Assembly: GCF_003334765.1 (NCBI RefSeq)
Contig: NZ_QOWT01000011.1
DNA: 64,000 bases
DNA from: Escherichia coli
GTDB taxonomy: Bacteria > Pseudomonadota > Gammaproteobacteria > Enterobacterales > Enterobacteriaceae
Direction: 5' to 3' (one strand)
Below the pieces are notes generated by a model. It did no database searches and was not told where the DNA came from. It was given only the letters and a program-made list of their open reading frames with translations. Positions 8,682 through 18,212 of the stretch are shown one piece after another (positions within the stretch are counted from its first letter, which is position 1; every line of letters begins with the position of its first letter). A program made the position numbers and the translations under genes.

Positions 8682-9406
8682 GTAAAAGCCGCTTAACGGT
8701 GTTTAGTTTCGTTCGCCGTTTTCTTTTGCGGTTAATGGTTGTCCTCGCCGTTTTCTGGGGCGGGGGCATCGCGTTGTTTAGCGTTGCGCCTGTTCCCTTC
8801 TCAGCGGTAATGGTCGAGCGACAGGTCAGCGCCTGGCTGCATGGCAATTTTCGTTACGTGGCACATTCTGACTGGGTCAGTATGGATCAAATCTCGCCGT
8901 GGATGGGACTGGCGGTGATTGCCGCAGAAGATCAGAAATTTCCTGAGCACTGGGGCTTTGATGTCGCTTCCATTGAGAAAGCCCTGGCGCACAACGAGCG
9001 CAATGAAAACCGTATTCGCGGTGCTTCAACGATTTCTCAACAGACAGCCAAAAATCTCTTTTTATGGGATGGGCGTAGCTGGGTTCGAAAAGGGCTGGAA
9101 GCCGGATTAACGCTGGGGATAGAAACGGTCTGGAGCAAAAAGCGTATCCTGACGGTTTACCTGAATATCGCCGAATTTGGCGACGGTGTGTTTGGCGTCG
9201 AAGCTGCGGCACAACGTTATTTCCACAAACCCGCGAGCAAACTTACCCGGTCGGAAGCTGCATTACTGGCAGCTGTATTACCTAATCCACTTCGTTTCAA
9301 AGTCTCCTCGCCATCGGGCTACGTGCGTAGCCGTCAGGCGTGGATTTTACGGCAGATGTATCAGTTAGGCGGTGAGCCGTTTATGCAACAACACCAGCTG
9401 GATTAA
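8678..9406 (+). CDS. mtgA: Monofunctional peptidoglycan glycosyltransferase MtgA (242 aa)
   Basis: Full-length ORF, ATGA overlap with elbB stop; GT51 motifs ([12 protein letters not shown]). Confidence 0.9.
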
Positions 9407-10035
9407 GCTTCGCGCGAAGTGAGGGCCAGCGTTTTGCTCTCACGAGGTTGCAGATCTTTCTGCAGGGCAATAGCCAGCGCCGGTTGGGCGATAAATCGTT
9501 TCCATAACCGCTCTTGCTTACGCAGACAACACCACTTCGACCAGGTCGCCAGTGGAATCAATGTGCTTTCACCAATGTTGTCGCAGACGACCGGGATAAC
9601 CTCTGACTCACTGATGCGGTGACAGAGGATATTCTGCGGCTTCAGCGACATCGTCACGATACGGTTATCCTGCAAATAACGCTTCAGCTGTTTCAGTAGC
9701 TGGCGCAGTTGTGCAATGTCTTCTTCGTAACGGCATTGTTCAGCAAATTCGGTCAGCGTAATGGAAGGCTTGCCGTCAAAATCTGCAATCACATCGTAGA
9801 CATAACCGGTTCCGCAATCCGTCTCAACGGTACCGTGATAGCGCGGTATTCCACTCCAGTCTTTTAACCGGCGACCAAGATGCGCGTAGTACTTTAACTC
9901 ACGGCGGATCTCTTTATCGCCACCATCGCCACGATGGTAGACAATCTTGATACAGCGTTGGGCATCTTCCGGATGCGCATAACATTTCCGATGTCTTCCG
10001 GTGCCCAGGGGACTTTGTTCAGATAAGCGAATCAT
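9403..10035 (-). CDS. yrbL: PhoP-regulated protein YrbL (210 aa)
   Basis: ORF 9403-10092; product from internal Met [24 protein letters not shown]... Confidence 0.8.
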
Positions 10036-10085
10036 GCCATCTCCTGGAAATATTTTCTGACGATCTCCAGTATGGTCGATTAACT

Positions 10086-10102
10086 TAAACAAAACCTAAA
10101 CA
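10086..10102 (-). promoter_or_regulatory. PhoP box direct repeat in the yrbL promoter
   Basis: Minus strand reads TGTTTA-GGTTT-TGTTTA, a perfect (T/G)GTTTA-N5-(T/G)GTTTA repeat about 50-65 nt upstream of the yrbL ATG. Confidence 0.5.
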
Positions 10103-10248
10103 ATGCCTCTTAAGGTTTTCTTAAGGTTCTTCTGAAAGTGAAAAGCGCACAAAATGTACAAATGACGTTGATTGAGAACGATTTCAGTACGTGATTTTCT
10201 TATTGTCGGGGGGAGTTTGAAGGGAGTTGTATGTCAAAGTGATGAAGA

Positions 10249-10521
10249 TTAATCTTCATCAAAACCAGAATTAAAGAGGGCGATAACGGCGGCCAGTGCT
10301 TCCTCTTCCTGTGGACCGGTCGCTTCAACTTCAATCTGCCGTCCTTTGGCAGAATCCAACATCAGCAGCGCAATAACGCTGTTGGCTTCAGCCTCGGTGC
10401 CTTCGTCATTACGTAAGAGCACTTCAGCGTCAAAACCCTGCATTAATTCAAACAGCTTCATTGCAGGCCGGGCATGCATGCCCAGCTTGTTTGTGATTTC
10501 AACAGTTTGCTTGACGGTCAT
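10249..10521 (-). CDS. npr: Nitrogen-PTS phosphocarrier protein NPr (90 aa)
   Basis: Full [29 protein letters not shown]...; HPr-like. Confidence 0.9.
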
Positions 10522-17234: not shown

Positions 17235-18212
17235 TTATTCAACGAGTATTGGCGATAACCAGTACAACATCGCCAGCCATACGATAAATCCGCCAGTTAA
17301 TAATACCCCTACACCACGGCCCGGTTGCGGGGAGCGCCGCCAGCACAGCAACGCAAAAATAATGCTCACCAGCAACATCACGCTGTAGTCACGACTGTAC
17401 GCCAGTGGATCAATCTCTCCTGGCGTTATCAGCGCGGGTAAACCCAACACGATGACAATATTAAAAATGTTTGCGCCAATGATATTTCCGACAGCAATGT
17501 CGTTTTCACCTTTGCGAACCCCCGCTATTGCGGTTGCCAGTTCCGGCAGGCTGGTTCCGATAGCAATTGCCGTCAGACCCATCGTCAACTCGCTGATGGC
17601 AAAGTAATTCGCCAGCACCGTGGCGTTATCAACCACCATCCGCGTGGCCACTGGCATGATGATAAGCGCAATGCCGAGCCATAAAAACGCGACGGGCAAT
17701 CCGCCGTCACGCGGCAGCTCTGCAAGCTGCTCTCTGGTCAGGCTGTCAGTCCCCTGACGTTCAGCCTGACGTGCAAGTTTAACAATGAACAGCAGCCATA
17801 GCACAGCCAGAAAGAGGAGAAAGATACCATCGCTGCGACTAAGTTGTCCGTCATAGAGTACGGAACCGGCCACCACGCTGACCAACAACATTAAGGGTAA
17901 TTCACGGCGTAGAACATCAGAATGGACGGTAAAAGGACGAACCAGCGCAGCCAGACCGAGGATCAGCAATATATTGATAATGTTTGAGCCGAGGGCTGTA
18001 CCAACGGCTAAATCGCGTTGTTCGTGCAGAGACGCGGCAAGCGAGACGATGACTTCTGGTAACGATGTACCAATACTGACCACCGTCATGCCGATGATCA
18101 GCGGCGGGATGCCAAAGGTTCGGCAAAGAATAGACGCGGCAAAAACCAGGCGGTCGGCACTGTAAACGACCAAAAGTAAACCAACAATTAACAGTGCCGT
18201 AGCTAAAAGCAT
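17235..18212 (-). CDS. yrbG: CaCA-family cation antiporter YrbG (325 aa)
   Basis: Full ORF, polytopic membrane protein with internal repeat (GTSLPE twice). Confidence 0.85.
   Translation of the reverse strand: MLLATALLIVGLLLVVYSADRLVFAASILCRTFGIPPLIIGMTVVSIGTSLPEVIVSLAASLHEQRDLAVGTALGSNIINILLILGLAALVRPFTVHSDVLRRELPLMLLVSVVAGSVLYDGQLSRSDGIFLLFLAVLWLLFIVKLARQAERQGTDSLTREQLAELPRDGGLPVAFLWLGIALIIMPVATRMVVDNATVLANYFAISELTMGLTAIAIGTSLPELATAIAGVRKGENDIAVGNIIGANIFNIVIVLGLPALITPGEIDPLAYSRDYSVMLLVSIIFALLCWRRSPQPGRGVGVLLTGGFIVWLAMLYWLSPILVE

Follow-up and report, generated by a model that had tools for sequence, protein, structure and literature searches.

PhoP-activated promoters and the yrbL locus of Escherichia coli

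The gene yrbL has counted among the textbook genes of the Mg2+/PhoP regulon since the early 2000s; published work covers its operator, its spacing, and its start site. In Salmonella, the yrbL promoter comprises a PhoP box, TCGTTTAGGTTTTGTTTAA, located 11 nt from the -10 hexamer CATACT, a -35 element TAGGTT with an 18-nt spacer, and a 32-nt leader (Zwir et al. 2012, PMC3335776). The promoter was assigned to "architecture I", with the box in direct orientation, and the overlap of the box with the -35 element led to its prediction as class II. S1 mapping detected a single start in wild-type Salmonella at 10 µM Mg2+ that was absent in a phoP mutant (PMC3335776). In the same study, the footprinting primer set C, used for the PhoP-P series, includes primer C2, and the yrbL S1 probe was C2/C3; on the strength of this shared primer, the Salmonella yrbL promoter was probably among those footprinted with PhoP-P. 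In Shigella flexneri, a 19-nt site, tTGTTTAggtttTGTTTAa, was described upstream of yrbL, a fragment from this region was gel-shifted by PhoP-P, and deleting phoPQ reduced yrbL RNA to 0.02x (PMC5775216). In E. coli, a yrbL-gfp reporter increases upon optogenetic induction of PhoP (PMC13215669), and work in K-12 treats yrbL as a standard PhoP-regulated gene (PMC2789325).

The mgtA and phoP promoters of E. coli and Salmonella (architecture I, class II) likewise have a single (T/G)GTTTA-N5-(T/G)GTTTA box, in direct orientation, around one turn above the -10 hexamer and with no -35 element (PMC3335776). They differ from yrbL in their spacing (12 nt versus 11 nt in yrbL) and in having no adjoining PmrA box, and mgtA has a long regulatory leader, unlike yrbL. 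The pmrD promoter, a 'bi-fan' that is activated by PhoP and repressed by PmrA, resembles yrbL in that transcription is driven from a PhoP box and restrained from a PmrA box a short way upstream; however, the pmrD boxes lie ~38 bp apart, compared with ~23-24 bp in yrbL, and the yrbL PmrA box is a perfect repeat.

The window analyzed here, the whole stretch of 64,000 nt, is a segment of an E. coli chromosome. Its plus strand encodes elbB and mtgA, and its minus strand encodes yrbL, npr, rapZ, ptsN, hpf, and rpoN. The spacer between npr and yrbL (213 nt, 10036-10248) is 100% identical to that of K-12 MG1655, so that experiments in K-12 are directly applicable. A sequence-only reading of this DNA had drawn attention to the interval 10036-10248, which is the entire npr-yrbL spacer; the PhoP box proper occupies 10086-10102. 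Read on the minus strand, the spacer has the order ...AACCTTAAGAAAACCTTAAGAGGCAT-TGTTTAGGTTTTGTTTA-AGTTAATCGAC-CATACT-GGAGATCG...AGGAGATGGC-ATG. Its elements, together with the gene that they serve, are as follows.

9403..10035, minus strand: yrbL coding sequence, 210 aa, kinase-like, Pfam PF10707 (YrbL-PhoP_reg)
10035..10033, minus strand: yrbL start codon ATG, corresponding to the RefSeq MG1655 start at 3348452
10045..10041, minus strand: Shine-Dalgarno sequence AGGAG of yrbL, read from the sequence
10102..10086, minus strand: PhoP box TGTTTA-GGTTT-TGTTTA (TGTTTAGGTTTTGTTTA), read from the sequence
10102..10097 and 10091..10086, minus strand: upstream and downstream hexamers (half-sites) of the PhoP box
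10074..10069, minus strand: -10 hexamer CATACT, invariant in 12/12 aligned promoters
10061..10067, minus strand: inferred transcription start zone, transferred from the Salmonella S1 map (~10067)

The layout is that of Salmonella yrbL (PMC3335776) in its single direct box, the 11-nt gap, CATACT, TAGGTT, a leader of ~32 nt, and a PmrA box ~24 bp upstream. Unlike the Salmonella box, in which the first half-site is CGTTTA, the box in the window begins with TGTTTA, a difference of one base; some Salmonella yrbL sequences have ATTTA as the second half-site. The Shigella flexneri box (PMC5775216) is identical to that of the window, and the organism differs nominally, Shigella falling within E. coli.

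The product of yrbL is named "PhoP regulatory network protein YrbL" in RefSeq. The longest mechanical yrbL open reading frame begins at a TTG at 10092, inside the PhoP box (extension 10035-10092, minus strand). We rejected this TTG as the start codon: the extension is unconserved and lies upstream of the transcription start, and the ATG at 10035 is preceded by AGGAG. At the other end of the gene, yrbL and mtgA are convergent and their 3' ends overlap by 4 nt (9403-9406; in MG1655 the ends are at 3349084 for yrbL and 3349081 for mtgA). In RNA polymerase studies, yrbL is the standard "consensus elemental pause" template (G-10...C-1 G+1; PMC11260103), and several candidate elemental-pause sites occur near the yrbL start codon, in the early transcript (~9990-10067, minus strand).

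Homologs of yrbL also turned up elsewhere. A contig from a human gut metagenome carries two adjacent YrbL-family genes on opposite strands, with ~50% identity to E. coli YrbL, and the pair adjoins a gene of the Kdo-kinase family (PF06293) and glycosyltransferases. From this neighborhood comes a hint that lipopolysaccharide or other envelope sugars may be targets of the kinase-like YrbL family. A 420-bp contig in the Tannerella forsythia ATCC 43037 assembly (NZ_JUET01000135.1) is 99% identical to E. coli yrbL and is almost certainly assembly contamination.

The PhoP box and the geometry of the yrbL promoter

The sequence-only reading had proposed that TGTTTA-GGTTT-TGTTTA is an exact match to the PhoP consensus lying 51-67 nt before the yrbL ATG, and both coordinates and uniqueness bear this out. 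Counted from the A of the ATG at 10035, the box occupies the nucleotides 51-67 upstream. The exact pattern TGTTTA-N5-TGTTTA occurs only once across both strands of the 64-kb window, at the yrbL box, with 0 mismatches, and dinucleotide-preserving shuffles give a chance expectation of 0.01. The box conforms to the (T/G)GTTTA-N5-(T/G)GTTTA tandem direct repeat of architecture I promoters and shares the minus strand with yrbL, that is, it is in direct orientation. The gap between the box and CATACT is 11 nt (10085..10075), within the 11-12 nt of architecture I. At the -35 position, 18 nt upstream of CATACT and inside the PhoP box, the sequence is TAGGTT, a poor element with 2/6 matches. No sigma-70 consensus promoter was called in a scan of 9900-10400, which fits an activator-dependent promoter.

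Relaxing the pattern to KGTTTA-N5-KGTTTA with one mismatch adds a single site in the window, TGTTAATTGTTGGTTTA, at 18177-18193 (minus strand). This site falls within codons 7-12 of an open reading frame (17235-18212) whose product is a membrane protein with a hydrophobic N-terminus. We rejected it as a PhoP site, as it is coding sequence and its occurrence is at chance level (0.67 expected).

The same numbers bear on whether the yrbL repeat could itself be a chance match in an AT-rich spacer, with the Mg2+ response of yrbL being indirect. By our own arithmetic, assuming uniform composition, ~0.5 exact TGTTTA-N5-TGTTTA matches are expected per 4.6-Mb genome, and the one-mismatch site at 18177-18193, clearly coding and at chance level, shows that near-matches of this kind do occur. 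However, only 0.01 exact matches are expected in the window, and the yrbL repeat has the right orientation and stands 11 nt from an invariant -10 hexamer. Both half-sites are kept across genera while the spacers drift, and PhoP-P shifted the Shigella yrbL upstream fragment, which carries an identical box (PMC5775216). A coincidental match is, in our view, hardly credible.

The sequence, orientation, and geometry of the site fit the published PhoP-activated yrbL promoter and thus support the proposal that yrbL belongs to the Mg2+/PhoPQ regulon. Published data also show the PhoP-dependent induction that this proposal calls for: the Salmonella S1 start, the Shigella RNA, and the E. coli reporter are all PhoP-dependent. 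The sequence-only reading had further held that the repeat makes the operator position explicit; the position is correct, but it is not new, having been explicit in the literature for two decades. The PhoP box of the yrbL promoter is already known in detail, and its confirmation adds nothing new. Binding of PhoP-P and PmrA to this exact E. coli DNA is supported by the identical Shigella box and by secondary citations of Minagawa 2003 and Zwir 2005.

The start site can be placed by transfer from Salmonella. The 32-nt leader reported there (PMC3335776) puts the start downstream of the box, and not upstream of the repeat as would be expected if the box lay within the untranslated leader. Transferred to the window, the Salmonella start maps to ~10067, just 2 nt past the -10 hexamer, which is unusually close; the true start may therefore lie a few nucleotides downstream, hence the zone 10061-10067, which corresponds to MG1655 3348420-3348426. 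An error of a few nucleotides affects either the Salmonella start or the -10 hexamer assignment. For E. coli, a discrete yrbL start is visible in a published 5'TNET-seq/dRNA-seq figure, and the supplements of PMC12709180 and PMC3415461 contained no coordinate for it. A scan of the spacer against Rfam returned nothing but a meaningless sub-threshold snoRNA match. In E. coli Ecol_AZ161 (NZ_CP019012.1), the IS66-family element ISEc23 (tnpA, tnpB, transposase) is inserted within the yrbL -10 hexamer, right after CATAC; this insertion is a natural knock-out of the PhoP-dependent yrbL promoter.

We considered whether the box might instead lie inside the 5' untranslated region of a transcript that originates upstream, by read-through from npr or from another promoter, with PhoP acting as a roadblock or a repressor. 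The scan of 9900-10400 revealed no intrinsic terminator between npr and yrbL, where E. coli lacks the intrinsic upstream terminators present in some genera, so that some read-through from the rpoN operon is conceivable; in addition, a conserved block at 10142-10161, described below, has no assigned function. Yet Shigella yrbL RNA falls ~50-fold without PhoPQ (PMC5775216), and a loss of this size indicates that PhoP activates. Salmonella has a single start that depends on PhoP and low Mg2+, with its 32-nt leader (PMC3335776), the scan of 9900-10400 found no sigma-70-like promoter upstream, and related genera with canonical terminators between npr and the conserved block keep the same layout. 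We therefore regard a position within an upstream-initiated leader as very improbable.

The end of the spacer that adjoins npr has features of its own. Following npr, the minus strand of 10205-10235 is a C-rich, G-poor tract that resembles a Rho utilization site, and at the equivalent place C. amalonaticus, Siccibacter, and Pluralibacter have a clear hairpin followed by a T-run. A perfect 20-bp palindrome, GATGAAGATTAATCTTCATC, at 10241-10260 extends across the npr stop codon (TAA, 10251..10249). Its RNA would fold into a hairpin just where the coding sequence of the rpoN operon ends, and the palindrome is partly constrained by the C-terminus of NPr.

Conservation of the promoter and the PmrA/BasR input

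We collected yrbL loci from Escherichia species, Citrobacter, Salmonella, Siccibacter, Pluralibacter, Superficieibacter, "Erwinia sp.", Cedecea, and Enterobacter hormaechei and aligned their upstream regions. Mean column identities, computed over 12 promoters from Escherichia, Citrobacter, and Salmonella, were as follows.

Conserved upstream block: 0.96
PmrA box: 0.94
PhoP box: 0.89
-10 hexamer: 1.00
Intervening spacers: 0.55-0.69
Sequence upstream of the block: 0.52

The footprint is thus sharply modular, with discrete conserved islands between drifting spacers, and the layout is recognizable in Siccibacter, Superficieibacter, and the E. hormaechei copy. Within the PhoP box, the first base of each hexamer varies (T, C, or A) and GTTTA or ATTTA is retained, in agreement with the published (C/T/G)GTTTA submotifs (PMC3335776). 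Among the variants sequenced here, those of E. coli have CGTTTA as the second half-site, and those of Salmonella and Citrobacter have CGTTTA or ATTTA. The exact K-12 30-mer around the box is present in 3343 of 5426 complete E. coli genomes (62%) and missing from the other ~38%. The allele TGTTTAGGTTTCGTTTA, found in O157:H7 and others, accounts for 848 of the 5426, the second half-site of O157 being CGTTTA, and CFT073 and others carry the allele TGTTTAGATTTCGTTTA; this strain variation falls at 10086-10091 within the PhoP box. With several natural alleles in circulation, the "perfect" PhoP box is a lineage allele, not a requirement.

The second island of the footprint, next to the PhoP box, had been overlooked by the sequence-only reading.

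10109..10128, plus strand: PmrA/BasR box CTTAAGGTT-TT-CTTAAGGTT, a perfect 9-nt repeat

Its hexamers, CTTAAG-GTTTT-CTTAAG at 10109-10125, fit the CTTAAK type with a 5-nt spacer and an 11-bp period, and the box lies 6 bp upstream of the PhoP box. The pattern YTTAAK-N5-YTTAAK occurs at one site in the window, 10109-10125, compared with 0.07 expected by chance. PmrA half-sites have been described as CTTAAT and CCTAAG, with base contacts to TAA (PMC10570014). According to two papers that cite Zwir 2005 (PMC3335776, PMC2681069), PhoP and PmrA sites occur together in the yrbL promoters of E. coli and Salmonella, E. coli yrbL is repressed by PmrA, and the PhoP and PmrA boxes of yrbL are ~24 bp apart; the centre-to-centre distance in the window is 23 bp. 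By these accounts, the PmrA/BasR box is a known repressor input to yrbL and not a new one. In iron-adapted E. coli B lines, basR, eptA, and the arn genes are up-regulated and yrbL is among the most strongly down-regulated genes; low yrbL expression in these BasSR-activated lines is consistent with PmrA repression.

The adjoining box raises the question of whether the PhoP repeat might chiefly be the target of another regulator of the OmpR/PhoB family, with dependence on PhoP arising through a cascade (e.g., from PhoP to RstA). Tandem hexamers that repeat every 11 bp are the target of all regulators in this family, the PmrA box is 6 bp away, and yrbL responds to iron, to the state of BasSR, and to Fur. 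However, the hexamers are the exact PhoP consensus and not of the PmrA half-site (CTTAAK), RstA, or OmpR types, where the scans with RstA- and OmpR-type consensuses covered the upstream block and gave background matches there. Moreover, purified PhoP-P shifted the Shigella yrbL upstream fragment with its identical box (PMC5775216). We consider it most unlikely that another family member is the chief occupant.

We are thus confident that yrbL is transcribed from a class II, PhoP-activated sigma-70 promoter whose operator is this repeat, and that PmrA, at the adjacent box, tempers the promoter. What this analysis contributes to the case is the sequence, the finding that the repeat is unique in the window, the geometry of the promoter, and the phylogenetic footprint; that PhoP binds, that expression depends on PhoP and Mg2+, where transcription starts, and that PmrA represses are taken from the literature. 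In the mechanism that we propose, PhoQ, activated by low Mg2+, cationic peptides, acid pH, or osmotic upshift, would phosphorylate PhoP, and a PhoP-P dimer would bind the two TGTTTA hexamers head-to-tail, one helical turn apart. The PhoP box would stand in for the absent -35 element (TAGGTT), 11 nt before CATACT, and from the box PhoP would recruit RNA polymerase, a contact proposed by analogy with mgtA. Transcription would start a few nucleotides past CATACT and yield a leader of ~30 nt bearing the AGGAG ribosome-binding site. PmrA/BasR, activated by Fe3+ or Al3+, would bind CTTAAG-N5-CTTAAG just upstream and lower yrbL expression, presumably by occluding PhoP or upstream contacts of the polymerase.

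A conserved block upstream of the two boxes

The remaining island of the footprint lies further upstream.

10161..10142, minus strand: conserved block TTGTACATTTTGTGCGCTTT, 20 nt, at -94..-75 from the inferred start

The block is near-invariant across Escherichia, Citrobacter, and Salmonella. Its mean column identity of 0.96 in the 12 promoters, against 0.52-0.55 for its flanks, is second in the spacer to that of the -10 hexamer. A 13-nt gap, variable in sequence and constant in length, separates it from the PmrA box. The core of the block, TAC(A/G)-N4-GTGC, is kept in Superficieibacter and in a yrbL copy of Enterobacter hormaechei, and a recognizable core is also present in Siccibacter and Pluralibacter. 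The distance from TACA to the PhoP box is 55-56 bp in E. coli, Salmonella, Superficieibacter, and the E. hormaechei copy. This copy stands in a second context, beside a tRNA-like gene and not downstream of npr.

848-924 and 1076-1200 of the E. hormaechei locus: yrbL homolog next to a tRNA-like gene (ARAGORN anticodon TTA, 'tRNA-Stop')
1076-1200 of the E. hormaechei locus: yrbL homolog

This copy preserves the block, has TGTTTAATGTCCATTTA as its PhoP box and CATAAT as its -10 hexamer, and retains its PmrA box in degenerate form only.

We examined whether the block could be an RNA or terminator element of npr and rejected this. In C. amalonaticus, Siccibacter, and Pluralibacter, the block is preceded by a canonical npr terminator, a hairpin with a T-run, and in E. 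hormaechei the copy stands away from npr altogether. The terminator position in these genera and the relocated copy together indicate that the block is part of the control region of yrbL rather than of the 3' end of npr.

In two ChIP-seq/RNA-seq studies, yrbL is listed among the genes under direct Fur control in MG1655 and CFT073, and the Fur ChIP-seq summit of CFT073 (NC_004431.1:3781815) maps 3 nt upstream of the block. We looked at the spacer for a Fur box. Against the 19-bp consensus GATAATGATAATCATTATC, the best match in the spacer was 11/19 in both K-12 and CFT073, a score at background level, as 269 positions of the window score at least 11, and there were no NATWAT hexamers, as in Fur arrays, in the spacer. 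Comparison of the block with an RstA box, a marbox, an Ada box, the MlrA palindrome, sigma-54 -24/-12 elements, and OmpR, CpxR, CRP, TyrR, or Fur sites likewise gave background matches throughout, and all were rejected, as anywhere from 30 to thousands of other positions in the 64 kb score as high. The best of these matches, to the Ada box (9/11), rests partly on non-conserved spacer.

Given its conservation, we speculated that the block is an operator for a third, as yet unassigned regulator of yrbL, a proposal that we put forward tentatively and with some doubt. The block could also be the real anchor of the Fur ChIP-seq signal, which lacks a Fur box. The E. coli yrbL reporter reaches saturation early, and its response to PhoP is looser than that of the phoP, pmrD, and slyB reporters (PMC13215669), a behavior that points to additional inputs; the block may account for this less faithful tracking of PhoP by yrbL relative to other regulon members.

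The value of the present analysis is modest and lies in the full anatomy of the K-12 promoter, which reads, from upstream to downstream, block, PmrA box, PhoP box, and -10 hexamer; the block is the only lead with some novelty. If it is indeed an operator, the yrbL promoter would be a three- or four-input integrator of Mg2+ through PhoP, Fe3+ through PmrA, Fe2+ through Fur, and an unassigned signal. YrbL is a kinase-like protein, and knowing all of its inputs could help to find its role.
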